Both the position numbers and the translations under genes were made by a program. Shown one piece after another: positions 7,504-40,078 of a stretch of 53,865 bases of DNA. Where the stretch lies: positions 1 through 53,865 of the forward strand of contig JBGTBX010000415.1 in the NCBI GenBank assembly GCA_041749115.1. The letters are read 5' to 3'. Origin of the DNA: Gemmatimonadaceae bacterium. GTDB lineage: Bacteria > Gemmatimonadota > Gemmatimonadetes > Gemmatimonadales > Gemmatimonadaceae. The notes under the pieces are model-generated. The model saw nothing but the letters and a program-made list of their open reading frames with translations, was not told the origin of the DNA and did not search any database. Position 1 is the stretch's first letter. Each line of letters begins with the position of its first letter.

Positions 7504-8532
7504 CTAGGGAAATGCCTGACGAATCCCCAAGGTTTCGTCCGTTCGCCGCATAGACTGGGCGGCGTTAGGCTCCTTTCCCGTAAGGGCGCGGATAGCGTCG
7601 ATCGTCTCGGGCACCACAATCGCCTGATTGTCCACCTGGTATGCGTAAAGGAGCTCCCGGCCCTCCAAAGAGAGTATGTCCTCCCAGATCGCCACCTCCC
7701 ACATGTCCCCGCGAGGTCGCCCGATCTCTTTCATGATCTCGGCAGTGACGTTAAGTGCCTCGATCCCGGCATCAACGCGGATAAACGCGATCCTTGGTAC
7801 CGCCCGGAACGCTTCGAGTACTTCGTCACGGCTGGCCGCGCGAGTCAAATCGACCATCCAATGGTGCAGGTGCGCGACGTTCTGTGGTGACTTCGAAGCC
7901 ATGGTGATGACATCAAGCTCAGGTATGACAGTTTTCGCATCGGGCCCCTGATGGCTGGGAATGCTCGGCTCCGGCACCATTGTGTTCAGGATGCCTCCTC
8001 GATGGCTTTCCCATGGGTCGGTTGCCCTTCGCACCAGCACGCCACGCGCTCGGAGTAGGAGCCCCGCCTGGCGAAGCGCGAATAACGTGCGCACTGTGGC
8101 CGTCGTGTTGCACGAGACTACGCGGGTCATTCGGCGATTGAGCGCGGACGCGTAGTTTGCGCTGGCCACGAAGCTGTGGCCGGCAAGCTCGTGTTTCGAA
8201 CCACCTTGAAACACGGCTCGGATTCCCGCCTTCTCGTAGCGCGGTCGGTTGCTGGCATCGATGCCCTTCGGCGTACAATCGACCACGACGTCGGCATCGT
8301 GAAGCAGTGACTCAATGTCTCCACGGGGTTCCAGTCCCGCAGCGAGCATCGCTGCGCGACCGTCACTTGTGGCAGCAAAGATTGGGAAGCCCCGCTGCTC
8401 AGCGATGCGCATTCGCCAGTCCGCTACCAGATCGGCGACGCCGACCAACTCCATGTCCTCCTGTATAGCCACTGCGTCTGCTACGCGACGTCCAATGACG
8501 CCGTATCCATTCACTGCGACTTTGATGCTCAT
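7504..8532 (-). CDS. gap: Type II (archaeal-type) glyceraldehyde-3-phosphate dehydrogenase
   Basis: MSIKVAVNGYGVIGRRVADAV...DVVVDCTPKGIDASNRPRYEKAGIRAVFQGGSKHE...TRVVSCNTT...VLVRRATDP. Co-linear with archaeal phosphorylating GAPDH (e.g. MKAVAINGYGTVGKRVADAI...VVSCNTTGL...RRGADP), not bacterial GapA. Confidence 0.75.
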   Translation of the reverse strand: MSIKVAVNGYGVIGRRVADAVAIQEDMELVGVADLVADWRMRIAEQRGFPIFAATSDGRAAMLAAGLEPRGDIESLLHDADVVVDCTPKGIDASNRPRYEKAGIRAVFQGGSKHELAGHSFVASANYASALNRRMTRVVSCNTTATVRTLFALRQAGLLLRARGVLVRRATDPWESHRGGILNTMVPEPSIPSHQGPDAKTVIPELDVITMASKSPQNVAHLHHWMVDLTRAASRDEVLEAFRAVPRIAFIRVDAGIEALNVTAEIMKEIGRPRGDMWEVAIWEDILSLEGRELLYAYQVDNQAIVVPETIDAIRALTGKEPNAAQSMRRTDETLGIRQAFP

Positions 8533-11495: not shown

Positions 11496-11786
11496 ATGAG
11501 ACAAGTCTCCATTTCCGAGCTCAAGGCGCAACTCAGCGCATACCTCGCGATTGTACGAGGAGGGGATGCGGTGCTTGTCACCGATCGTGGGCGCGTGGTC
11601 GCCCAGCTCGCCCCCGCTCCGGTGGCTGACGCTGCGGTTGGGCGACGCGAACAGCTGCTGCAGGAAGGGCGCATGCGCGCTCCCCAAAGCAAGCTCTCAA
11701 AGGAGTTTGCACGCGCGGATATTCCAACGGACTCAGAAGGGCGTTCACTGGCCGCCATTATCGAAGAGCGCGGCGAGGGCTGGTGA
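11496..11786 (+). CDS. Type II antitoxin, Phd/YefM family
   Basis: MRQVSISELKAQLSAYLAIVRGGDAVLVTDRGRVVAQLAP has the Phd/YefM N-terminal fold signature. 4-nt overlap (GTGA) with the downstream PIN toxin. Confidence 0.8.
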   Translation: MRQVSISELKAQLSAYLAIVRGGDAVLVTDRGRVVAQLAPAPVADAAVGRREQLLQEGRMRAPQSKLSKEFARADIPTDSEGRSLAAIIEERGEGW

Positions 11787-12199
11787 AGTTCTGGGATTCG
11801 TCGGCGCTGGTGCCATTACTGCTGAACCAACCCCGCACAGCGTTGGCTCGAGAGCTCCTGCGTGAAGACGGCGAACAGGTGGTGTGGTGGGGATCGGTCG
11901 TGGAATGTGCGTCCGCGATTGCACGATTGCATCGCGACGGCCACTTAACATCTGCAGATGAACGCCGTGCACGCGAGCTGTTGCAGACGCTGAGCGGCAG
12001 TTGGTTCGAGATGCAGCCGGGCGCGGCTATTCGCGAGCATGCGCTCCGACTGCTCCGACTACACCCTCTGCGCGCCGCTGATGCGATGCAGCTCGCTGCT
12101 GCAATCGAATGGGCCGGTGCGCCGTCCAATGGTTCGTTCGTCACTTTCGATGATCGCCTCGCCGCGGCGGCGCAGCGTGAAGGTTTCGCTACCCCGTAG
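11783..12199 (+). CDS. vapC: PIN-domain toxin (VapC-like)
   Basis: VKFWDSSALVPLL (first acidic PIN residue), 138 aa, GTG start overlapping the antitoxin stop. Confidence 0.75.
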   Translation: MKFWDSSALVPLLLNQPRTALARELLREDGEQVVWWGSVVECASAIARLHRDGHLTSADERRARELLQTLSGSWFEMQPGAAIREHALRLLRLHPLRAADAMQLAAAIEWAGAPSNGSFVTFDDRLAAAAQREGFATP

Positions 12200-12259: not shown

Positions 12260-12547
12260 CTAGTGACCGCGGTCGTCGTCCAGTTCAGCAAGGATCTCCG
12301 CCAGGGGGGCCACGGGAACCCGTTTGGGCTTCGGCGTTCGGGCTCGCATCACGGGAGGACTGACAACTCCTTCGCGAACGGCCTGCGCGAGGAGGGCATC
12401 GTTGACGTACAGTGAGCGCCCTTGCGGAGGTACCAGCTCAGCAACCACACGGTCGCGGTCGGTCACGAGGATCACTTCGCCGCTCGCGGCCAGGCGCACG
12501 TACTCAGCGAGCTTGTTCTTGAGGACCTTGAGGCCGACGGCGATCAT
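12260..12547 (-). CDS. Type II antitoxin, Phd/YefM family
   Basis: MIAVGLKVLKNKLAEYVRLAASGEVILVTDRDRVVAELVPP, 95 aa. Confidence 0.75.
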   Translation of the reverse strand: MIAVGLKVLKNKLAEYVRLAASGEVILVTDRDRVVAELVPPQGRSLYVNDALLAQAVREGVVSPPVMRARTPKPKRVPVAPLAEILAELDDDRGH

Positions 12548-12853: not shown

Positions 12854-14425
12854 ATGGTTAGCATGACGCCCCCGCCCAAATCCGTCCTCTGGGTCGACGA
12901 TGAAGTCGACCTCCTCGAGGCGCATCGCCTCTTCCTCGCCGGCAAGGGCATCGACGTCACGGTCGCCAGCAATGCCGACGACGCCATCGAATTGGTCAGG
13001 AGACAGCCGTTCGACCTGATGCTGCTCGACGAACAGATGCCAGGCACACGCGGCCTCGATGCGGTACGCTCGGTGCGCGAACTCGCCCCGACGTTGCCGG
13101 TGGTGATGATCACCAAGTCCGAAGATGACGCGACACTGCGCGAGGCATTGGGAGCGGATGTCCGTGACTATTTGGTTAAGCCGGTGTCGCCACGTCAGGT
13201 TCTTTCGCTGATTACCAAAATCCTTGATGGCGCCCGCATCAGGCAGCAGGCGGTCGCGCGGGCGTTCGTTGAGCGTTTCCGCGAGATGGAGCAGGAGGCG
13301 AGCAAAGACCTCGACTGGCGCGGCTGGGTTGATCGGTTCGATGAACTGATGCGCTGGGATATTGATCTGGCCGAGGCGAGCGAGGGTGGGTTGCACGAAT
13401 CGCTGCGTGGATTGTATCCGCACATGCAGCGCGACTTCGCACACTTCATCGCCACGAACTACCCGGCGTGGCTTCGCGACCTGGAAGGTGATCGGCCTCC
13501 TCTTTCGGTCGACGTCGTCAGTGAATTTGTTCTGCCGGTGCTCAAGCGCGACTCCCGCGTCGTGTTCATCGTGGTCGACTGTATGCGCCTTGATCAATGG
13601 CGTGCGCTCGAACCCGGCCTTGCGACACTCTTTGACGTCGAAACAACGCACTATTTCTCCATCCTTCCCACGGCGACACCATACGCGCGCAACGCCATCT
13701 TTGCGGGGCTCTTTCCGGGCGAGATTGCGGCGCGCTTTCCGGATTGGTGGGGGAGCGATCGCGATGACGAGTCACTGAATAAACACGAAGCGGAACTGCT
13801 CGAGGCGCAACTGAAAGAGGCGAAGGTCAACGCCGCGGTGCGCTACCACAAGATCTCCACGCCGCACGATTCGGATGAGCTTGAGCGCCATATGGCCACT
13901 GCGATCGCCCCCGAAGGTGTGTCGGCGTTCGTGTTCAATTTTGTTGATCTGCTCACACATGGCAGATCCGAGTCCGCGATTCTCTTTGAAGTCGCGCGCG
14001 ACGAAGTGGCATTGCGCCAACTCACGTCGCAGTGGTTCCAGCGCTCCTCGCTGCTGAGCCTCCTCCAGGAGGCCGCACGAAAGAAGATCCGCGTCGTACT
14101 CACCAGCGACCACGGTTCAATCCACTGCACGACTCCCGCCACAGTCTTCGCCAAGCGCGACGCGACCCATAACCTGCGCTACAAGTTCGGCGAAGATATC
14201 CGCGCCGAGCGCCACGATCAGGCGCTGAGCTTCCGGAACTCGGACGACCTGCGCCTCCCGCGACGTGGTTCAGGTGCGGGAACGCTCATGGCCGTCGGCA
14301 ATACGTTCTTTGTATATCCCACGAAGTTGCGGGAATACCAGAGTCGCTATCGCGGATCATTCCTGCACGGGGGAGTCACACCGGAGGAGTGCATTGTTCC
14401 GCTGGCACTTCTGACACCCAGGTAA
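12854..14425 (+). CDS. Response regulator receiver domain fused to a PglZ (alkaline-phosphatase superfamily) domain; PorX-like
   Basis: N-terminal CheY-like REC (VLWVDDEVDLLEAH...DLMLLDEQMPGTRGLD...VVMITKSEDD...VRDYLVKP). The C-terminal 400 aa carries PglZ/AP-superfamily motifs (FIVVDCMRLDQW, VVLTSDHGSIHCT). Same architecture as Porphyromonas PorX. Confidence 0.75.
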   Translation: MVSMTPPPKSVLWVDDEVDLLEAHRLFLAGKGIDVTVASNADDAIELVRRQPFDLMLLDEQMPGTRGLDAVRSVRELAPTLPVVMITKSEDDATLREALGADVRDYLVKPVSPRQVLSLITKILDGARIRQQAVARAFVERFREMEQEASKDLDWRGWVDRFDELMRWDIDLAEASEGGLHESLRGLYPHMQRDFAHFIATNYPAWLRDLEGDRPPLSVDVVSEFVLPVLKRDSRVVFIVVDCMRLDQWRALEPGLATLFDVETTHYFSILPTATPYARNAIFAGLFPGEIAARFPDWWGSDRDDESLNKHEAELLEAQLKEAKVNAAVRYHKISTPHDSDELERHMATAIAPEGVSAFVFNFVDLLTHGRSESAILFEVARDEVALRQLTSQWFQRSSLLSLLQEAARKKIRVVLTSDHGSIHCTTPATVFAKRDATHNLRYKFGEDIRAERHDQALSFRNSDDLRLPRRGSGAGTLMAVGNTFFVYPTKLREYQSRYRGSFLHGGVTPEECIVPLALLTPR

Positions 14426-30819: not shown

Positions 30820-31497
30820 CTAACGCGCGTCGAACACCGCGCTGTTGCCTTCGAGGGTGCGCCGCTCGCCCCCCAGCAGCCTGGACAAAAGTGTTCTCGC
30901 TCCTCGGCTTAATGCAGTGCCCGGATTGCGCTGCCCGCGCACCGCGGAAGACAGATCTCCGCTCACCCACCGGCGGAGTTCGTCCAGGTCCGACACCGAG
31001 AGCATCTCCAACTCAAGCACGACATGGTAGTACTGTCGCGTTGCCGGAACGGCCACGATACCGACGCGGAACGGTAGTTCGATCTGCGTTGTGACTTCGT
31101 TGATGGTACGGTATCGTGTCCCGGGAGCAGCTGCCGCAAACGGCACGATCGTGTCGCGCACAACACGCACCATCTCGTAGTTGCCTTCGAACGCATCGAA
31201 TCGCACAACGACGTCCCATTCCACCGTCCGCAGCAGACGGTCGAAGCCGCGTCGCGCCTGCCAGAGTTCCGTGCGGAAGTGGAGTCGTGCGGGGAACCCC
31301 GCGTGGAGCAGCTCACGAACATCCTTATCTGCCAGCACGCCCACCACTCGCACGCTTGGACCAACATACGCCACCGAATCGGTGACGGGTGCTCGCACAA
31401 AGATCGCAGGCTGCGGTTGCGCCAGCAGTTGCCGAGCACCAGCGACGCCAAGCAGCAAAGCAAAGAGTGGCACGCACCAGATACGCCGCACGCCCAT
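30820..31497 (-). CDS. DUF4390 domain protein (secreted)
   Basis: Signal peptide MGVRRIWCVPLFALLLGVAGA. Family membership assigned by similarity of length and composition to NtrYX-associated DUF4390 proteins. Last gene of the eight-gene operon (4-nt overlap with the upstream OMP gene). Confidence 0.5.
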   Translation of the reverse strand: MGVRRIWCVPLFALLLGVAGARQLLAQPQPAIFVRAPVTDSVAYVGPSVRVVGVLADKDVRELLHAGFPARLHFRTELWQARRGFDRLLRTVEWDVVVRFDAFEGNYEMVRVVRDTIVPFAAAAPGTRYRTINEVTTQIELPFRVGIVAVPATRQYYHVVLELEMLSVSDLDELRRWVSGDLSSAVRGQRNPGTALSRGARTLLSRLLGGERRTLEGNSAVFDAR

Positions 31498-31499
31498 GA

Positions 31500-33266
31500 T
31501 CAGAATCGTGGCCGAAGCCGGACGACAAAGTTCACTGGCGAGTGTGATTGTGACAGTCCCTTGGCCACGTAGAGCCCGACATTGTCGAGCACCACACCGA
31601 TGCCGATGTCCGTCTGAAAGGTTGAAAGGGGTGGCAGTACACCCTTCCGAAACGTGACGCGACCGTCAGGTTGTCCGACCTGCCAGCCGCGACCGGCGTC
31701 GGCGAACAGAACGAACTGCGTACCACGTCCCCAGCCGCGTCTGCGAAACGAGCGGTCGCCGCTGAATAATCCAAACGGATCCACGTTGAGCCGACCACGA
31801 AACTCCACCTGAACAAACGCGATGCGATCGCATTCAGCCGGCGTGCCGTTGGCCTGTGTGCCACCCGTGAGCTGACGACTGCACTGCCAGTAATCGATTG
31901 GTGCGCCCCCGACTTCTCCCACCACGTCGCGAAAATCGTATCCGGGGAGTGTACCGGGGCCGCCGACCGAGAGTCGCCGTTCCATCGGCAGCTGATCACC
32001 GCTCAGCCAGCCTCCAAGCAACACTCTGGCATTGAATTGACTGCCCGGCGAAATGCGGCTGTACCGACGTGCGTCGATCAGAACGCGGTCATACGAAGTG
32101 GCGCCCCCCACAGTTTGCACTCGCGGGCTCGTCGGCGCCGTGCTGTATCGAGAGATCGTTCCGGTACCGTATTCATACTCGCCGGACAGGTACCAGCCGT
32201 CATCAGGGAGGCGCGTATTCGAGCGCGTATCGTACGTAACGCGCACGCTTCCCAACGTGAATCTGCCATCGTCGACATCCGGATTTTCGCGCCACCCCTC
32301 GGCGTCGCGCGTCAGAGTCCACGGATCCCGCACACTGCGCGCACCCCACCGCTCCCTGGACCACCCGACCGTGACATCAAGATCATTGCCTACGAACGCG
32401 GAAGCAGAGACCGAACCTCCCTTGCGATCGAAGTAGTCGCGAAAGTCCCGATGAAGAAGGAAGGACGCAAGCCCGACTTCACTGTCGCTCAGCTTCCATG
32501 GTTCAACGGCATCCACAACATCAAAATGCCGCGCTCCGATTCGCCAACCGTATTGCTTGCCGACGCTTACTTCAACTTCTGCCGAGTGACCCACGTTCTC
32601 CGGCGTGAGTTCAAAGGACCTGACGCTACGCAGCACGCTGAGTGCCTCGACGGTGACGCGCCCCCAGTCGAACTCGCGTCCGATCACCGGGCCGAGGAGC
32701 ACGGGAAGACCTTCGACGCGATTGTACGTGCGTGCCGAGGCAAGCCGCAGTTCAGTCCAACCCTGTTCGCGCCACCGGTCGCGTTGCCGCCACCAGCGTG
32801 TCGCCAGGTTCGCCGACGGTGTGACAATGGAATACACACCGTCAACGACATTCAGCTGCAGACGTTCGCGATACACGACCACACGTCCCGCGTCCGTCAG
32901 CCGATCAACGTCCGGCAACGATCCTCCGAAGACGAAGACCGTGTCTTCAAGCACAGCGGAGGGCGCGAATCGAACGGTGCCATTTACTACGAAGAGTCGT
33001 CCTCGGAGGCGTCCTTCGGCGCGCACGTCTCCGCCGATGACAACGACCTGGCTGCCCGACTCGAGGCCAGGCACAGTCACCGACGCGGTCTGGATCACGC
33101 GCGTTGAAGAATCGTTCAGCGCGTTCAGCAACACCTGCTGCGCGGCCGTGGGAACCTGGGCCGACGCAGGAGCCTGGGCGCCTCCCGCCGCAGAAGCGGC
33201 GAACGTGGCGACGATGCTGCCGGCGCAGAACGCCGCACGACGAGCTCCTGATCGTGGCGTGAACAT
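31500..33266 (-). CDS. Outer-membrane beta-barrel protein with an N-terminal beta-helical (bactofilin/polymer-forming-like) passenger region
   Basis: Signal peptide with AxA site. VVVIGGDVRAEGRLRGRLFVVNGTVRFAPSAVLEDTVFVFGGSL resembles repeated beta-helix rungs. The C-terminal half is rich in alternating aromatic/Gly and ends ...VVRLRPRF (terminal Phe typical of OMP barrels). Confidence 0.55.
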   Translation of the reverse strand: MFTPRSGARRAAFCAGSIVATFAASAAGGAQAPASAQVPTAAQQVLLNALNDSSTRVIQTASVTVPGLESGSQVVVIGGDVRAEGRLRGRLFVVNGTVRFAPSAVLEDTVFVFGGSLPDVDRLTDAGRVVVYRERLQLNVVDGVYSIVTPSANLATRWWRQRDRWREQGWTELRLASARTYNRVEGLPVLLGPVIGREFDWGRVTVEALSVLRSVRSFELTPENVGHSAEVEVSVGKQYGWRIGARHFDVVDAVEPWKLSDSEVGLASFLLHRDFRDYFDRKGGSVSASAFVGNDLDVTVGWSRERWGARSVRDPWTLTRDAEGWRENPDVDDGRFTLGSVRVTYDTRSNTRLPDDGWYLSGEYEYGTGTISRYSTAPTSPRVQTVGGATSYDRVLIDARRYSRISPGSQFNARVLLGGWLSGDQLPMERRLSVGGPGTLPGYDFRDVVGEVGGAPIDYWQCSRQLTGGTQANGTPAECDRIAFVQVEFRGRLNVDPFGLFSGDRSFRRRGWGRGTQFVLFADAGRGWQVGQPDGRVTFRKGVLPPLSTFQTDIGIGVVLDNVGLYVAKGLSQSHSPVNFVVRLRPRF

Positions 33267-33275
33267 GATGTGTAG

Positions 33276-34679
33276 CTAATCTATGGCGCCGTCCGCAGCC
33301 GTGGGTGTGGCTGCGTCCGGTGCGATGTCGAGCCGTTTCATCCGGCGATACAGGTTGGGTCGATCTGTCTGAAGTCGCCGAGCCGCCTCAGCGACGTTTC
33401 CGCCGGCCGCGCTGAGCGCGCGCGCGATCAATTCGCGCTCATAGTCGTCAAGCATCCGGTTCAGCGGCACATCCGACGTGTCTGCCGTCACTGTACGGGC
33501 AAATTCCGGTGTGTCGTGCAACGCGATGACTTCCTGCACGTCGGCAACACCGATGCGCTGCCCGGGGTGAAGGATCATCAGGCGCTCTACGACGTTGGCC
33601 AGTTCGCGCACGTTGCCCGGCCAGCGGTAGCGCATGAGGCACTGCAGCGCTCCCTCTGACCATTCGGGCAGCGAGCGTCCGGATCGCAGTCTCAGAAGCG
33701 ATGCGAAGTGACTGACGAGCAACGAGATGTCGGACGTGCGATCCCGCAGCGGCGGTAGCGGGACGGGAATAACATTCAGCCGGAAGAGCAGGTCGTCGCG
33801 GAACGCCCCTCCGCGCACGGCGCGTTCGAGATTCTTGTTGGTTGCCGCGATCACGCGTGTATCGACCGGGATGGGTTTCGTGCCTCCAACGCGCTCGATC
33901 TCGCCCGCCTCAAGTGCGCGCAGAAGTTTTGCCTGAGCTTCGGCGCCCAGATCTCCCACTTCATCGAGGAAGAGCGTACCTCTGTGAGCCAGTTCGAACT
34001 TGCCCAGTCGTCGTTCAGTGGCACCTGTGAACGATCCGCGCTCATGGCCGAACATCTCGCTTTCCACGAGGTCGCGCGGGATTGCGGCGCAGTTCACACG
34101 AATGAATGACAGGTCACGCCGAACGCTGGCCTCGTGAATGCCGCTCGCGACCAGCTCCTTGCCCGTCCCGGATTCACCGGTGATGAGTACACGTGAATTG
34201 GTGGGGCCGATGCGTTGAATCAGATCCCGCACCCGCTGCATCGGTTCGCTCTCGCCGATGAGTGCTCCTCCACCGGTGATCTCTGCACGCAGGACCGCCG
34301 CTTCGCGTCGCGCGCGGCGCAGCTCCAGCGCCGAGCCGAGCGCAAGCAACACGCCCTCCGGTGTCAGTGGCTTCTCGAGGAACGTGAACGCTCCGAGTCT
34401 GGTGGCGCGCACCGCGTCGCTCAACCCGGCTCGACCACTCATCATGACGACCGGGAGCTGGGGCACCTGGTCGTGCAGCGCCTTGAGCACGCCCATCCCA
34501 TCGAGGTCGCCCGGCATCATGAGGTCCACCAAAACGACGTCTGGTTCCTGATCAAGCGCAGCGGCTATTCCGGCATGAGCATTTGCGGCCTCCCGAACAT
34601 CGTATCCTTCGCTGGCCAGCAGCGCGCCGACCATGCGGCGGATGTTGGGTTCGTCGTCGATGATCAGGACGGAGGGCAT
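33276..34679 (-). CDS. Sigma-54-dependent response regulator (NtrC/NtrX family: REC + AAA+ + Fis HTH)
   Basis: REC (VLIIDDEPNIRRM...DLMMPGDLDG), AAA+ Walker A GESGTGKE, GAFTGA-type sigma-54 contact motif (ERGSFTGA), and a C-terminal Fis-type HTH (GNVAEAARRLQTDRPNLYRRMKRL). Confidence 0.85.
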   Translation of the reverse strand: MPSVLIIDDEPNIRRMVGALLASEGYDVREAANAHAGIAAALDQEPDVVLVDLMMPGDLDGMGVLKALHDQVPQLPVVMMSGRAGLSDAVRATRLGAFTFLEKPLTPEGVLLALGSALELRRARREAAVLRAEITGGGALIGESEPMQRVRDLIQRIGPTNSRVLITGESGTGKELVASGIHEASVRRDLSFIRVNCAAIPRDLVESEMFGHERGSFTGATERRLGKFELAHRGTLFLDEVGDLGAEAQAKLLRALEAGEIERVGGTKPIPVDTRVIAATNKNLERAVRGGAFRDDLLFRLNVIPVPLPPLRDRTSDISLLVSHFASLLRLRSGRSLPEWSEGALQCLMRYRWPGNVRELANVVERLMILHPGQRIGVADVQEVIALHDTPEFARTVTADTSDVPLNRMLDDYERELIARALSAAGGNVAEAARRLQTDRPNLYRRMKRLDIAPDAATPTAADGAID

Positions 34680-34691
34680 GTGCGAGCCAGA

Positions 34692-35336
34692 TTAACGCGA
34701 TGTTTCCTGGCGTACACTCTCACGCTGGGGTATCTCAATCGGTTGTGCTTCAACAGGAGAAAGCGCCCGCATCTCACTCATGAGTTTGGTGCTGTATCGC
34801 TGATTCTCGGAGATACGTTCCACTTCGATGGCGATAGCATCCACGGCTTGTTCCATACGGTCAAATCGTTGACCGTCTCCATCCGAAGGGGACGTTTTGC
34901 CACGACCCTCAAGCCGTCTGGCGATGGCGCGCACGAGTGGTCCGCCCAGAAAGATCGCCGCCGCGAGAAACATGGCGCCAAAAATTACTTCCTGAACATC
35001 CGGCGGAATAGCGTTGGTGTCCCTGGGGCTCTCCACGGTCGCGGCTTCGTACGTGCGGCCGGACGCCGCGGCATCCAGTTGTTGTTCGACCGATTCGAGG
35101 CGATCCTGCGCTGCATTAATCTGATCGCGAATCACCGAGACGGCGCTGTTGGACTGCCCGGGCACGAGTCGGTCGGTCAGATCCTGTACCTCTTTCTTGG
35201 TGCCGGCGATCTGCGCCTGCAGGATTTCAATCGCCCGATTGGGATCGCGCGCTGTCAACGGCCCTTCGAGGAGCTGTGGAAGCGGCGGTGGTGGCGGTGG
35301 CGCTGTCACGCCGGCTTGCTGATCGAAAATATGCAT
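34692..35336 (-). CDS. Paralog 4 of a tandem family of small single-TM proteins (214 aa: N-terminal coiled-coil, TM, conserved C-terminal motif)
   Basis: N-terminal Pro-rich and coiled-coil segment (ILQAQIAGTKKEVQDLTDRL...), TM (VIFGAMFLAAAIFLGGPLV), then RFDRMEQAVDAIAIEVERISENQRYSTKLMSEMRAL. Start ATG overlaps the stop of paralog 3 (TAATG). Confidence 0.6.
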   Translation of the reverse strand: MHIFDQQAGVTAPPPPPPLPQLLEGPLTARDPNRAIEILQAQIAGTKKEVQDLTDRLVPGQSNSAVSVIRDQINAAQDRLESVEQQLDAAASGRTYEAATVESPRDTNAIPPDVQEVIFGAMFLAAAIFLGGPLVRAIARRLEGRGKTSPSDGDGQRFDRMEQAVDAIAIEVERISENQRYSTKLMSEMRALSPVEAQPIEIPQRESVRQETSR

Positions 35337-35935
35337 TATGCAGGAGTGTCAGCGGTCCGACGGACCGGTGTAGGCTCACGCGCCGCCTGACTGAATGATT
35401 CGGCAGGTGGTGCCGGGAGTGCTCGCATTTCATTCAGGAGCATTGCGCTGTAGCGCTGTCCTTCAGACACCCGCTCCATCTCCACAGCAAGCGCATCGAT
35501 CGCCTGTTCAATGCGATCGAGTCGATCGTCGTCGGCTGCGGCAGCGGGGCGAACGCGCAACTCCGACCGGCGCGCCCATGAACGAATGACAGGCAGCAAC
35601 AGCACGGTTACGGCGATCGTGGAAAAGAGCCAGGCGCCGATGTCGGTGAAGTTGATGGGATCCATCGGTGGCGGCTCCGGGAACTGCGTCACAGTGATAG
35701 GTTCGTCGCCACGAATTCTCTGATCGAGCGACTCCTGCAGAGATTGCATCCGCTCCGTGGCACGTTCAATCTGAGCCACCACGGCCTCTTCACGCGCATC
35801 GGAGGTGCCATTGGTGAGCTGTGATGTGAGATCACCAATCTCCTGCCTGATGCCTGCGATTTCTGCGCGCAGCAGACCGATGGTCTGGACCTGAGTGATC
35901 TGCTCGGGCGTCGGAGGCGGTAGCTGAGGTTGCAT
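35336..35935 (-). CDS. Paralog 3 (199 aa: N-terminal coiled-coil, TM, conserved C-terminal motif)
   Basis: N-terminus MQPQLPPPTPEQ...LLRAEIAGIRQEIGDLTSQL aligns to the paralog 4 N-terminus. TM IGAWLFSTIAVTVLLLPVI, then DRLDRIEQAIDALAVEMERVSEGQRYSAMLLNEMRAL. TAATG overlap with paralog 2. Confidence 0.6.
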   Translation of the reverse strand: MQPQLPPPTPEQITQVQTIGLLRAEIAGIRQEIGDLTSQLTNGTSDAREEAVVAQIERATERMQSLQESLDQRIRGDEPITVTQFPEPPPMDPINFTDIGAWLFSTIAVTVLLLPVIRSWARRSELRVRPAAAADDDRLDRIEQAIDALAVEMERVSEGQRYSAMLLNEMRALPAPPAESFSQAAREPTPVRRTADTPA

Positions 35936-36231
35936 TATGACGACCTCCGCGACGCGGACTCGCGCGCAGCGGCTGGCAGTGCAACAGGCTCCGGCCCTCT
36001 CTCCGCCATAAGCCGTGTGACAAAACGCTGGCCTTCGGAGATGCGTTCCACCTCGACTGCCATGGCATCAATCGCGTGTTCGATGCGATCCAATCGCATG
36101 ACGACCTCCGGCTGTGCAGGACTTGGCTTCGAGTCGAGGCGGCGAATCCACGCCCGCATGAGCGGAATGCCGAAGGAAAGAACAATGATGGTGCCGAAAG
36201 TTGCAATAATCGCAACGATGTCTTCATCCAT
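35935..36231 (-). CDS. Paralog 2 (98 aa: N-terminal TM + conserved C-terminal motif)
   Basis: MDEDIVAIIATFGTIIVLSFGIPLMRAWIRRL...MRLDRIEHAIDAMAVEVERISEGQRFVTRLMAER. SD GAGGG upstream. Confidence 0.6.
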   Translation of the reverse strand: MDEDIVAIIATFGTIIVLSFGIPLMRAWIRRLDSKPSPAQPEVVMRLDRIEHAIDAMAVEVERISEGQRFVTRLMAERGPEPVALPAAARESASRRSS

Positions 36232-36246
36232 TTGGTTGCCCTCAGA

Positions 36247-36531
36247 TTAATCAGAAGATGCAGGCGAGTGATGCGGAGCGTCCTGTTGCGTGCGCTCCGC
36301 CAGGAGACGGGTGTTCATGCGTTGAGCTTCGGACAGTCGTTCCACTTCGCCGGCAATCGCGTCGATTGCATGCTCAATACGGTCGAGCCGATCCTCACCC
36401 GGGCCCACGCTTCCTCCACCATACTGGCGTGTCTGCAATTCAGCCATACGCTCTCTGTAGCCCAGCACGGATCGGATGATCGTCGCGATGCTGATGAATA
36501 AAACGATCGGAATAAGGAATTGAAGCCCCAC
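36247..36531 (-). CDS. Paralog 1 (94 aa: N-terminal TM + conserved C-terminal motif)
   Basis: MGLQFLIPIVLFISIATIIRSVLGYRERMAEL...DRLDRIEHAIDAIAGEVERLSEAQRMNTRLLAER. GTG start overlaps the kinase stop (TAGTG). Confidence 0.6.
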   Translation of the reverse strand: MGLQFLIPIVLFISIATIIRSVLGYRERMAELQTRQYGGGSVGPGEDRLDRIEHAIDAIAGEVERLSEAQRMNTRLLAERTQQDAPHHSPASSD

Positions 36532-37784
36532 TAGACACCACCTTGTTTGAGTACCACCGGGAGAATAATGCGAATGAGGGTTCCGCGCGCGACTTCGCTG
36601 GACGCACTGACCTCACCGTTGTGCTCGACGACTGCCTGCCTCGCAATCGCAAGCCCGAGCCCCGTGCCGGCCGGCTTGGTCGTGACGTACGGATGCCAGA
36701 TGTCTGCAATGCGATCCGGAGGGATTCCGCTCCCCGAATCGGCAATGCTGAATTGCACGGCGGGCTCTCCATTCAGCGACGCGCTCTCCACGTGCATGGT
36801 GATGGTCCCTCCATGAGTCGTTGCGTCGACGGCGTTGAGCACCACGTTGGACAAGGCCCGATGAATCGATTCAAAACGAGCGGTGAATGAACCAACACCC
36901 CGGCCGACTTCCACAGAGCCGGTGTGCGTGGCCGGGACACACGCGCGCATCACTGCGTGCGCCAACTCGACGGCGTCGACATCAGACGGCGGCCCATCGG
37001 GCAATCGGCCGAACTGTGCAAAGCTGCGCGCCAATCGATCCAGCCGCGCGGTTTCTTCGCGGATGACTTTCACGGGCTCTGCGAATGCCTCGGGAGCCTT
37101 CGCGAGTTGTGCGAGCGCGAACTGAATGGGCGTCAACGGGTTTTTGAGTTCATGTGCGACACGGCGCGCCGATTCGCGAAAGGCAATCGAGCGTTCGAGA
37201 TCCACGGCGCGCTGGCGTCCCAGCTGGAGTTCGTGTGACATGCTGCGCATCCTGTCCCGGAGCACCCCGAATTCCGGTGCGCCTCTCACCTGAGTTTCCT
37301 CTGGCAGCGCTTCTCCGCGTGCGATGTGCCCGGTCCAGCCAACGAGTTCCTGAATGGGCCGACTGAGCTGTCGTGCGAGGTGGCCTGCAACTCTCGAAGC
37401 GGCCACCGCAAAGACGAGCAGCATGAGCAGCGCGCCGAGTATGGCTGCGGGAACAATCTGCCTGACAACAAAGCCGAGTCTCCTAGCTTGTGTGAGCGAC
37501 GACTCGAGTTCGCGTTCATGTGATCGCAGTGCCTCTCGTTCGGTAGGAGTAAGATTCGCGTTGTCGAGGACGGATGTGGCTGTCCTGCCTGAGGTTGCGA
37601 CTCGTTCCCATGCAGCATCCGCAGTCAGAGACGGGAGCGTTCGCCAGGCGGCGATCCCCCAGACTGCTGTAAGGACAAACGCGGGCACGAGCGCGAAAAG
37701 GGCAAGGCTCAGGAGGAGTCTTTGGCGGAAGCCAAGCCTCTTCATAGAGGCACTACGACGAGAAAAATGAGCGGTTTCGGGCAC
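36531..37784 (-). CDS. Sensor histidine kinase (2 TM, periplasmic loop, HAMP, HisKA, HATPase), NtrY-like
   Basis: TM1 LLLSLALFALVPAFVLTAVWGIAAW, an 80-90 aa loop, TM2 IVPAAILGALLMLLVFAVAA, then HAMP (ARQLSRPIQELVGWTGHIARGE), H-box VAHELKNPLTPI and the ATPase G-boxes (IADSGSGIP, GTGLGLAI). Start is either the GTG at 37784 or the internal MKRLGF. Confidence 0.8.
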   Translation of the reverse strand: MPETAHFSRRSASMKRLGFRQRLLLSLALFALVPAFVLTAVWGIAAWRTLPSLTADAAWERVATSGRTATSVLDNANLTPTEREALRSHERELESSLTQARRLGFVVRQIVPAAILGALLMLLVFAVAASRVAGHLARQLSRPIQELVGWTGHIARGEALPEETQVRGAPEFGVLRDRMRSMSHELQLGRQRAVDLERSIAFRESARRVAHELKNPLTPIQFALAQLAKAPEAFAEPVKVIREETARLDRLARSFAQFGRLPDGPPSDVDAVELAHAVMRACVPATHTGSVEVGRGVGSFTARFESIHRALSNVVLNAVDATTHGGTITMHVESASLNGEPAVQFSIADSGSGIPPDRIADIWHPYVTTKPAGTGLGLAIARQAVVEHNGEVSASSEVARGTLIRIILPVVLKQGGV

Positions 37785-38167: not shown

Positions 38168-40078
38168 ATGCATGCTCGTAACACTCGGCCCGCCCCAACG
38201 CGCGCGCCGATCGCCCCCATTCACAGGGGGCCCCAGGCCCAAGGGCCAGGCACCTATGGTGCCCCGGTGCCCAACGCATCGAACGCCGCTCTCTTGATCG
38301 ACTTTGACAATGTCACCATGGGCATCCGCTCGGGGTTCGCAAATGAACTCCGCAGTCTGCTCGGGTCGGAGATCATCAAAGGAAAGGTGGCAGTCAAACG
38401 TGCCTACGCCGATTGGCGAAGGTACCCGCAGTACATCGTGCCGCTTGCCGAGTCGTCGATCGATATGATCATGGCGCCGGCCTACGGGTCGTCCAAGAAG
38501 AACGCCACGGATATTCGACTCGCTGTCGATGCCATGGAACTCGTCTTCACGCGCCCCGAAATCGGTACCTACATTCTGTTGTCCGGTGATTCCGACTTTG
38601 CATCGTTGGTCACCAAGATCAAGGAGTACGGCAAGTACGTCATCGGTATCGGCATCCGGGAGTCATCGAGCGACCTGCTCGTGATGAACTGTGACGAGTA
38701 CTACAGCTACAACGCGCTGGCCGGATTGGTTAAGTCGAGCGACGAAGAAGTGACCAAGTGGGATGCGTGGGAACTGGTGGTCGAAGCCATCACCCGCATG
38801 CAGAAGAATGGCGATGTAATGCGTTCGGACCGTCTCAAGCAGGTCATGCAGGACATCGATGCCACTTTCGACGAGAAAAACGTCGGGCATGGCTACTCCA
38901 AGTTTTCACGCTTCGTGTCGGATGCGGCAGATAAAGGTCTGCTGACAACCACTAAGCTGGAGAACGGTCAGCTGGAAGTGACGCCGGGAACAGGCCAGGC
39001 TGTGGTTGCCGCACAGGCTTCACTGGCAGCATCACCGCCGAGTGAAACGGAACAGCGCCGCGAAGAACGGAGTGGTCGCCGCCGACGTGGCGGGCGCGGT
39101 CGTGGTGGACGGGATGGTGAGCGAACGGCAAGTCCTGCTGCGGCCACACCGGCTGCTGCTGACAGCACGACGGCCAAACCAGCGGTTGCTGCCGCGACTG
39201 AACAAAAGGCAGCTCCGGCGGCTGAACAGAAAACAGCTGCTGCAGCACCTGCAGCGGCTGAACAGAAAGCAGCTCCTGCCACGGCGTCAACCACGTCGGC
39301 CAGGCCGGCTGCAGCGGCTCCCAGTACCGGCGCAACCGCTCGCGCGGCAACGCCGGCTGCGGCTGCGAAACCTGATACCATTGGGTTAAGTGGCGAGCGA
39401 CTGTCGCGCGCAGAAGCATTCGATCTCGTGCGCAAGGCCGTCGAGGCAACGACGAAGGATGTCGATGATTCGGCGTTGTCATATGTGGTTCGCCACAAGG
39501 CACACGAGTTGCTGGGTCGGGACAGTGAATCACTGAGTGAACGTAACTTTCACCGGATACTTCGGGACGCACACGATGTCGAAACGATTGACCTGCGGCG
39601 TCGAGGTGATGACTACGAAGTGTCGCGTCCAGCCAAGGCTCCGAGCGTCGCTGAACAGGTAAGCAAAGCCGAGGCTGCGGCAACACCCGCACCGAAGGTG
39701 AGTGCACCAGGACCGAGAGGCATGGGTCCACGCGGTATTCCGGGTCGCGGCCGTGGTCGCGCCAGTGAAATGCCACCAGAATTGCTGATGGTGGGTGTGG
39801 TGGGTCCGTCGAGTGGTGCAGTAGCGAAGGCCGTGCCGGCCAGTGACAACGGCGCTGAGGCGGAGGTCGCAAAAGCCGACGTCGCAAAGGCCGATGCCGC
39901 AAAAGCCGAGGCCGCTCCGGTGAAAAAGAAGCCAACGCGCACACCGCGAAAGCGTGCTGCGAAGAAAGCGACGGCCAAGGCAACTGTCGCGCCTGACGAT
40001 GCCGAAGTTGCGGATAAAAAGCCGAAGGCGAAAACTGCACGGAAGCGTGCTGCCAAAAAGAAGACGGCGGCCGTTTGA
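38168..40078 (+). CDS. NYN-domain (LabA/PIN-like) protein with two OST-HTH/LOTUS domains and a Lys/Ala-rich histone-H1-like C-terminal tail
   Basis: NAALLIDFDNV...KRAYADW...TDIRLAVDAMEL...ILLSGDSDFASLV is the NYN nuclease-fold signature. ...WELVVEAITRMQKNGDVMRSDRLKQVM is a LOTUS-like helix-turn-helix. A long Ala/Pro/Glu/Lys low-complexity linker carries AEQKAAPA repeats. A second LOTUS-like region (AEAFDLVRKAVEATTKDVDDSALSYVV) follows. C-terminal tail PVKKKPTRTPRKRAAKKATAKA...KPKAKTARKRAAKKKTAAV. Confidence 0.65.
   Translation: MHARNTRPAPTRAPIAPIHRGPQAQGPGTYGAPVPNASNAALLIDFDNVTMGIRSGFANELRSLLGSEIIKGKVAVKRAYADWRRYPQYIVPLAESSIDMIMAPAYGSSKKNATDIRLAVDAMELVFTRPEIGTYILLSGDSDFASLVTKIKEYGKYVIGIGIRESSSDLLVMNCDEYYSYNALAGLVKSSDEEVTKWDAWELVVEAITRMQKNGDVMRSDRLKQVMQDIDATFDEKNVGHGYSKFSRFVSDAADKGLLTTTKLENGQLEVTPGTGQAVVAAQASLAASPPSETEQRREERSGRRRRGGRGRGGRDGERTASPAAATPAAADSTTAKPAVAAATEQKAAPAAEQKTAAAAPAAAEQKAAPATASTTSARPAAAAPSTGATARAATPAAAAKPDTIGLSGERLSRAEAFDLVRKAVEATTKDVDDSALSYVVRHKAHELLGRDSESLSERNFHRILRDAHDVETIDLRRRGDDYEVSRPAKAPSVAEQVSKAEAAATPAPKVSAPGPRGMGPRGIPGRGRGRASEMPPELLMVGVVGPSSGAVAKAVPASDNGAEAEVAKADVAKADAAKAEAAPVKKKPTRTPRKRAAKKATAKATVAPDDAEVADKKPKAKTARKRAAKKKTAAV
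39197..39281 (+). repeat. Imperfect in-frame tandem repeats (about 27-36 nt) encoding AEQKAAPA units within the NYN/LOTUS gene linker
   Basis: gctgaacaaaaggcagctccggcg / gctgaacagaaaacagctgctgcagcacctgcagcg / gctgaacagaaagcagctcctgcc. Confidence 0.5.

Follow-up and report, generated by a model that had tools for sequence, protein, structure and literature searches.

Accessory "third components" of two-component systems are only now being recognised, with the QseG structure of 2025 and the PlrP genetics of 2026. QseG is encoded between qseE and qseF, binds the kinase directly and sets or activates its activity, and is an outer-membrane lipoprotein that contacts the periplasmic domain of the kinase (PMC6075780; PMC12691602). 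For PlrP, a DUF4390 protein, genetic evidence has led to the proposal of a third component of NtrYX-family systems that works in the periplasm and curbs the phosphatase activity of the kinase. PlrP in PlrSR and NtrZ in NtrYX are proposed third components of systems with an NtrC/NtrX-like regulator; in both cases the gene strictly co-localises with that of the kinase, and the protein is proposed to restrain kinase phosphatase activity (PMC13001219). Here, an operon was analysed in a 53,865-nucleotide (nt) stretch of DNA from a Gemmatimonadaceae bacterium (assembly GCA_041749115.1, contig JBGTBX010000415.1; the whole stretch is hereafter the window). In this operon, four tandem paralogous genes of a protein family that we call X (X-A to X-D) lie between the gene of a sensor histidine kinase and that of a sigma-54-dependent response regulator.

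By gene order and logic, QseE-QseG-QseF (GlrK-YfhG-GlrR) of the Enterobacteria is the closest known system to the X operon, and PlrP and NtrZ are the closest in concept. The enterobacterial system shares with the X operon the order of kinase, accessory gene and sigma-54 response regulator, and its output concerns the cell envelope. In contrast to QseG, X has neither a lipobox nor a signal peptide, is predicted to be a bitopic inner-membrane protein whose conserved part is cytoplasmic, and occurs in one to four copies; no Pfam match to YfhG/QseG was obtained for X-C and X-D. PlrP is soluble and periplasmic and acts via a PDC sensor domain that is absent from the kinase of the window, and X is unrelated to it. 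Moreover, plrP is located upstream of its kinase gene, whereas the DUF4390 gene of the X operon stands at its end, after an Omp85-like gene.

MgrB and SafA (PhoQ), MzrA (EnvZ) and LiaF (LiaS) are small or single-pass membrane proteins that, by binding a kinase, alter the balance between its kinase and phosphatase activities. Some of them are encoded in the operon of their kinase, and their functional parts are periplasmic or lie in the transmembrane (TM) helix. None of them is known to carry the X signature or to form an ordered tandem array of paralogs. Sda and KipI are small helical inhibitors of KinA that dock in the cytoplasm on the dimerization and histidine phosphotransfer (DHp) stalk of the kinase. 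This is the docking mode proposed below for the conserved helix of X, although Sda and KipI are soluble, have no sequence relation to X, and their genes do not lie between those of a kinase and its regulator. The Psp system (PspB/PspC-PspA-PspF) shares layout and logic with X, that is, small bitopic membrane proteins with a cytoplasmic helix and a relay to a sigma-54 activator. On the other hand, no homology between the two was detected, the X operon has no PspA, and the activator linked to X has a receiver (REC) domain and a cognate kinase, while PspF is without REC.

X as an obligate part of a conserved operon

The conserved order of the operon is histidine kinase, one to four X genes, sigma-54 response regulator, Omp85-like protein and DUF4390 protein, with an NYN-domain gene divergently oriented upstream. 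It was established by scoring the six-frame open reading frames (ORFs) of 84 fetched X-seeded loci and of the window with an X profile and with the neighbour proteins of the window, and 83 of the 84 loci have this operon. For the reverse test, a metagenome scan was seeded with the DUF4390 protein, and loci containing both the kinase and the regulator were counted; all 25 carry one to four X genes between these two. X is therefore an obligate part of the operon, the co-occurrence being shown both ways. The unit is also larger than was seen in an earlier note on this DNA, which had described the kinase, the array and the regulator, since it encodes the Omp85-like and DUF4390 proteins as well.

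The number of X copies varies from locus to locus. Among the 85 genome-derived loci (the 84 and the window), 38 have one copy, 20 have two, 15 have three and 12 have four, and of the 25 loci of the reverse test, 17 have one copy, 1 has two, 2 have three and 5 have four. The four-copy state thus accounts for approximately 15–20% of loci and one copy is the commonest; the four-fold array of the window is not the basic state. Counted from the kinase stop, the first X gene starts at a median of +1 nt, and the median spacing between the end of the last X gene and the beginning of the regulator gene is 10 nt. The exception to the synteny is a canonical orphan X copy in one surveyed locus (L025, approximately 7995–8285 on the plus strand, motif RLERIEHAIDAMAVEVERISEGQRF), which is divergent from a 1106-amino-acid (aa) Ser/Thr kinase-TM-TPR gene; the same genome has a three-copy operon in another locus (L020).

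In the window, the stop codon of the kinase gene and the start codon of X-A overlap by 1 nt (TAGTG, as read from the sequence), and 1-nt overlaps (TAATG) are also found at the X-B/X-C and X-C/X-D junctions. X-A and X-B are separated by a gap of 15 nt, so that the continuous stop/start chaining described earlier holds at three junctions but not at this one. The array ends 12 nt before the regulator gene, in agreement with the earlier description, and the Omp85-like gene starts 9 nt past the end of the regulator gene.

An undescribed family of predicted bitopic proteins

The X family is large. More than 5892 matches with E ≤ 1e-3 were found among 8000 scored candidates; none of the database matches has a Pfam domain, all are named hypothetical, and the few organism names given are Gemmatimonadaceae. 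An exhaustive HMMER scan of 1.84 billion representatives yielded 4083 clusters at 50% identity with E ≤ 1e-3, of which 2742 had E ≤ 1e-10. The best 150 representatives are 84–255 aa long with the X module always at the C-terminus, and no fusion proteins with the module occur among them. In species-representative genomes, at least 450 X stretches were confirmed, and the best 80 are all from Gemmatimonadota.

Neither Pfam nor NCBIfam gave an above-threshold match for the four paralogs or for 38 diverse relatives. A profile search of the PDB returned nothing significant (the best hit was the flagellin ND1 helix, 8jmv, E = 0.08), Foldseek with the AlphaFold2 (AF2) model found no match in the PDB, and the literature that could be searched mentions neither the motif nor the system in Gemmatimonadota. 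Profile searches thus place the motif in no characterised family, which agrees with the earlier view of X as uncharacterised and with no recognisable catalytic or DNA-binding motif. Judged from sequence, X appears to be an undescribed family of bitopic inner-membrane proteins that is Gemmatimonadota-wide among named sources.

The sub-threshold look-alikes of X were DUF2730, PspA, PspM_Rv2743c (2 of the 38 members), flagellin and Osmo_CC, and they may reflect only the coiled-coil composition of the helix. DUF2730 (PF10805) was rejected as a relative, because its scores remained below the gathering threshold of 24.9 bits (X-C had 14.2 bits; 10 of 38 members were hit, with a best E of 1e-3). The possibility that X is a fragment detached from the kinase or regulator of its operon was rejected as well, with hhalign probabilities of at most 0.3% against alignments of 80 kinases and 74 regulators.

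The topology was derived from 167 gene products of the 85 loci, with 15 residues taken as the flank on each side of the TM helix. Exactly one hydrophobic helix is present in 165 of the 167 products. The mean number of Lys and Arg residues is 4.28 on the C-terminal flank and 0.94 on the N-terminal flank, with the C-terminal side higher in 165 of 167. This bias predicts an N-out, C-in orientation and therefore a cytoplasmic location of the conserved helix, as the earlier note had assumed. There is no N-terminal signal or lipobox in X; the TM helix is N-terminal in the short forms and internal in the long ones. The short form is the universal one and exposes only about 5 residues outside the membrane. 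The positive-inside rule also puts charged N-domains of 70–155 aa into the periplasm without a signal peptide (X-C, X-D and the long forms of loci L004–L074).

The TM helix ends in G-x-P-L-V-R-A-x-x-R-R and is followed by a short variable linker and a cytoplasmic helix of about 37 residues with the signature R-L-x-R-[IM]-E-x-A-[IV]-[DE]-[AS]-x-[AS]-[IV]-E-V-E-R-I-S-E-G-Q-R-[FY]-x-T-[KR]-L-L. In X-B, this layout consists of an MDEDI start, the TM helix, GxPLMRAWIRR, the linker and the final helix RLDRIEHAIDAMAVEVERISEGQRFVTRLMAER. A basic stop-transfer of the form R-W/A-RR had been ascribed to every paralog, but X-A has RSVLGYRER at this place. The AF2 model of X-B (predicted local distance difference test score, pLDDT, 91) has a helix at residues 3–34 comprising the TM and juxtamembrane part, a short loop, a helix at 41–77 and a floppy tail. 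For X-D (pLDDT 80), residues 1–31 are disordered and Pro-rich, followed by helices at 32–55 and 63–91, a linker, the TM helix at 112–144 and the conserved helix at 154–191. X-C has the same layout as X-D: its TM helix is preceded by an N-domain of about 98 aa that is helical and rich in Pro. The homology of the N-terminal segments of the two longer members that was described earlier is indeed present. In the family as a whole, however, the long forms vary in their N-terminal extensions, which are of low complexity, Pro-rich with A/Q/E/R-rich helical parts, and contain no conserved domain; the AQIAG-K-E-DLT segment of X-C and X-D is common only to a subgroup of long forms. The paralogs carry the same cytoplasmic signature with differing TM and N-terminal parts.

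Residue conservation was calculated from 427 distinct X sequences in X-B numbering. R46, R49, E51, E60, E62, R63, E66, Q68 and R69 are conserved at 95–100%, and E60, E62, R63, E66, Q68 and R69 among them at 99–100%, while L47, A53, F/Y70, T72, L74, G21, P23 and R26 are conserved at 83–100%. The hydrophobic residues follow a heptad 3–4 spacing (L47, I50, I54, M57, V61, I64, Q68, V71, L/M75), and conserved charged or small residues are found on the remaining faces of the helix also. Conservation on all faces suggests that the helix is enclosed in a protein interface and is not a free coiled coil. A function as a histidine phosphotransfer helix was rejected, since the His of RIEHAID varies: among the 427 sequences, 61% have Q at this position, 17% have H and 7% have N.

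The four genes are old paralogs

The ORF positions, the four motifs and the mutual homology reported for the tandem array of single-TM genes were all reproduced. Pairwise blastp E-values between the four proteins range from 7e-8 to 1e-28, and all four are alignable over the TM helix, the basic juxtamembrane stretch and the conserved helix. By comparing the 33-residue motif among the paralogs, the amino-acid identity was found to be 0.61–0.79 and the third-codon-position identity only 0.27–0.42. The motif has been kept while third codon positions diverged, which identifies the genes as old duplicates under purifying selection; they are not recent copies, products of gene conversion or chance frames.

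Two long antisense ORFs overlap the X genes (34215–35390, plus strand, 391 aa; 36076–36501, plus strand, 141 aa), so it has to be asked whether the four ORFs themselves arose by chance or merely mirror genes of the other strand. This is practically inconceivable in view of thousands of homologs with the invariant motif, of amino acids that are kept while third codon positions vary, and of an order and position kept in more than 100 loci. Independent gene calls concur: the same four products (94, 98, 199 and 214 aa) were obtained by an independent gene caller in a second assembly of the same DNA. The conservation and the coding signal extend well beyond this genome, and it is the two antisense ORFs that were rejected as genes, being shadows of the conserved minus-strand X genes. 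A naive pick of the longest ORF selected the 141-aa antisense ORF over X-A and X-B.

Across genomes, the paralogs form old position-specific orthogroups. X-A groups with the first-of-four copies of loci L009, L010, L018 and L029. X-B groups with the universal type that occurs as the only copy, and its core is 66% identical to that of the single-copy gene of L005. X-C and X-D group with the long, last-position copies of other genomes. The peculiarity of the window is thus the duplicated long form, and the same is found in L029.

Comparison with Psp proteins

The earlier note had likened the array to PspB and PspC. The gross layout of PspB is like that of X: a small protein with an N-terminal TM helix, a cytoplasmic helix and a sigma-54 activator as partner. 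What X has in common with PspB, however, is the architecture only, namely a bitopic protein with a TM helix followed by a cytoplasmic helix, as given by the Lys and Arg statistics and by AF2. Neither PspB (PF06667) nor PspC (PF04024) matched the four paralogs at E ≤ 1 or the 38 members at E ≤ 10, and hhalign of X against E. coli PspB gave a probability of 1.3% over 4 aligned columns. Furthermore, the operon is without pspA or pspC, and its activator has a REC domain. It is thus highly improbable that the X paralogs are divergent members of PspB/PspC, and the likeness drawn earlier, for which profiles and hhalign detect no homology, is reduced to one of layout.

A relation to PspA/IM30 was rejected as well. 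Among the four paralogs, the model TIGR02977 was hit by X-D only, with 15.8 bits against a cut-off of 243 (E = 0.009), and it was hit by 1 of 38 family members. The X helix has 34% identity over 29 aa to residues 161–189 of E. coli PspA, which is sub-threshold, and the hhalign probability is 0.8%.

The partner proteins of the operon

In the kinase, two TM helices enclose some 60 aa of periplasmic loop, and the HAMP, HisKA and HATPase_c domains come after the second helix. No PAS, PDC or NtrY N-terminal domain was found with Pfam and NCBIfam, and the best NCBIfam models were AtoS and ZraS. The designation "NtrY-like" of the earlier note is therefore not borne out, as the architecture lacks both PAS and the multi-TM N-domain of NtrY, and the only link of this kinase to NtrYX is the indirect one through the DUF4390 neighbour. 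In 80 orthologs, the mean top-residue frequency is 0.79 for DHp, 0.75 for HAMP and 0.66 for the catalytic and ATP-binding domain; conservation is low in TM2 (0.44) and intermediate in TM1 (0.68), which contains an FA-x-VP motif. This pattern, with HAMP as conserved as DHp, is unusual and may point to a binding surface.

The regulator is a complete NtrC-type activator with REC, AAA+ and HTH_8 domains and an intact GSFTGA loop, which is conserved in orthologs, so its description as a sigma-54 enhancer-binding protein was correct. Compared over 74 orthologs, it surpasses all other proteins of the operon in conservation, and the NCBIfam models of NtrC, AtoC and NtrX all remained below their cut-offs. 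A search for sigma-54 −24/−12 elements in the window (at most 2 mismatches) returned 20 matches where 28.8 were expected, hence no enrichment, and the intergenic region between the NYN and kinase genes of 68 loci contains no consistent element of this type. As such elements are neither enriched in the window nor present upstream of the operon, the targets of the regulator are likely to lie elsewhere.

The Omp85-like protein has an N-terminal region of about 225 aa without an assigned family; it is syntenic in nearly all loci, and no PDB or NCBIfam match was found for it. The DUF4390 protein is about 220 aa long. The copy of the window reaches only E = 0.14 against PF14334, and 13 of 16 orthologs match this model with a best E of 6e-11. 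The presence of this DUF4390/PlrP-family gene ties the system to the "third component" theme of NtrYX and PlrSR rather than to Psp.

Proposed role of X

We hypothesize that X is an accessory (third-component) subunit of this two-component system whose helix docks on the HAMP/DHp stalk of the kinase, and we give this reading a probability of about 50%. It is based on the obligate two-way synteny, translational coupling with the kinase, anchoring in the membrane, and an invariant helix combined with variable TM and N-terminal parts. The unusually high conservation of the HAMP region of the kinase also speaks for it, and QseG and PlrP are precedents for accessory proteins encoded next to such systems. 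X would be made together with the kinase via stop/start coupling and would sit beside it in the membrane. The invariant cytoplasmic helix would then dock on a conserved cytoplasmic partner, most likely the helical HAMP/DHp stalk of the kinase, and this binding would shift the kinase/phosphatase balance and thereby the level of phosphorylated regulator. The variable parts, i.e., the TM helix and the Pro-rich helical N-domain of the long forms, predicted to be periplasmic, may serve as alternative inputs. With variable input parts on a shared signature, extra paralogs would supply further inputs that feed a single shared output. Which protein X contacts, in which direction it acts and what signal it conveys are points that we infer, and envelope stress as the signal is speculation. 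The undescribed membrane-signal relay module of the earlier note is retained in so far as a membrane-linked signalling accessory is the most economical account, given the tight synteny with kinase and regulator; its relation to Psp is not.

Several observations weigh against this assignment. The regulator is as well conserved as the kinase and as near to X on the chromosome. The mirror-tree partial correlations are at most 0.17 and non-specific, being similar for HAMP, the Omp85 barrel and DUF4390. The best-studied membrane accessories, QseG, PlrP and MgrB, act periplasmically, whereas the conserved part of X is cytoplasmic. Moreover, the orphan X of L025 stands beside the Ser/Thr kinase-TPR gene, away from any histidine kinase, and the long paralogs would have to export their charged N-domain of 70–155 aa with no signal peptide.

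In the main alternative, the helix would bind the sigma-54 regulator at its REC domain, linker or AAA+ domain, so that the regulator is held at the membrane or its ATPase is blocked until a membrane or periplasmic cue arrives, in a logic like that of PspA acting on PspF. The last X gene and the regulator gene are close together (median spacing 10 nt), the near-invariant helix would be matched by the most conserved protein of the operon, and several paralogs with one signature would suit a hexameric target. This is unlikely in our opinion, because the regulator is already controlled by its REC domain, because the first X gene is coupled translationally to the kinase and not to the regulator, and because the mirror-tree partial correlations with the regulator are no higher than 0.11. 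The sub-threshold likeness to PspA residues 161–189 would also fit such binding, but it is not significant and is found in a single member of 38.

The tight synteny of the Omp85-like and DUF4390 genes, which equals that of the kinase and regulator genes, raises another explanation: X may belong to an envelope complex with these two proteins, serving there as a structural component or as a relay, with the long forms extending into the periplasm. The two-component system would then regulate this complex or simply be co-expressed with it, and would not itself be under the control of X. In distance correlation, X is as close to the Omp85 barrel and to DUF4390 as to HAMP, and the Pro-rich, A/Q/E-rich helical N-domains of the long paralogs have a predicted periplasmic location. 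The form of X that occurs universally, however, is the short one with its few residues outside the membrane, the conserved part is cytoplasmic and beyond the reach of Omp85 and DUF4390, and the X genes always lie between the kinase and regulator genes and not beside the Omp85 gene. We consider this rather improbable for these reasons, and we keep the docking of X on the kinase stalk as the preferred reading.

In a wider and doubtful scheme, the entire operon would form a hitherto unrecognised trans-envelope pathway to sigma-54. The Omp85-like and DUF4390 proteins would pass the state of the envelope on to the inner membrane, the X proteins would act as bitopic transducers of a new class whose invariant helix gates either the HAMP/DHp stalk or the AAA+ activator directly, and the paralog arrays would provide modular inputs to one output.

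Features of the window

The coordinates of the operon and of its divergent neighbour are collected in Table 1.

Table 1. The X operon and the adjacent NYN-domain gene; positions are counted from the first letter of the window.
Feature	Position	Strand	Description
X-A	36247–36531	minus	94 aa, GTG start, divergent short paralog; conserved helix encoded at 36292–36390
X-B	35935–36231	minus	98 aa, canonical short paralog; conserved helix encoded at 35998–36096
X-C	35336–35935	minus	199 aa, long paralog; conserved helix encoded at 35426–35524
X-D	34692–35336	minus	214 aa, long paralog; conserved helix encoded at 34770–34868
Sensor histidine kinase (HK)	36531–37784	minus	Pfam HAMP 7e-5, HisKA 2.4e-9, HATPase_c 1.9e-23
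Sigma-54-dependent response regulator (RR)	33276–34679	minus	Pfam Sigma54_activat 8e-67, Response_reg 1e-25, HTH_8 3e-10
Omp85-superfamily outer-membrane protein	31500–33266	minus	Pfam Omp85 2.9e-10, residues 226–463
DUF4390 (PlrP-family) protein	30820–31497	minus	signal peptide; last gene of the operon; orthologs match PF14334
NYN-domain protein	38168–40078	plus	636 aa, divergent neighbour of the kinase gene; PF01936 E = 1e-25

The NYN-domain gene is found divergently beside the kinase gene in 68 of 85 loci and may be functionally linked to the operon; the C-terminal half of its product is long, of low complexity and rich in Ala, Pro and Lys. Elsewhere in the window, a response regulator of the REC-PglZ (PorX-like) type with 523 aa is encoded at 12854–14425 on the plus strand. 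A Phd/YefM antitoxin gene and an overlapping PIN-domain toxin gene are located at 11496–12199 on the plus strand, and beside this pair is a convergent ORF of 95 aa (12260–12547, minus strand) whose N-terminus is antitoxin-like.

Significance of the X family

X is a new protein family whose probable role is of a familiar type, since accessory proteins for two-component systems are in themselves no surprise. Across one phylum, the kinase/sigma-54 regulator pair examined here was never found without such a protein, and PlrP-family and Omp85-like proteins are encoded alongside. The family is large and unannotated, and its signature is one of the most invariant short signatures in a non-enzymatic protein, which makes it a clean target for interaction mapping. 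Few membrane-tethered kinase modulators that act from the cytoplasmic side are known. If the helix does bind the HAMP/DHp stalk, X would be a natural modulator of this type, tethered to the membrane and setting kinase output from the cytoplasm. A Pfam or NCBIfam model for X would give a name to thousands of "hypothetical proteins" of soil metagenomes. The X family is thus large, cleanly defined and experimentally tractable, with a function that is predicted from sequence and genomic context.

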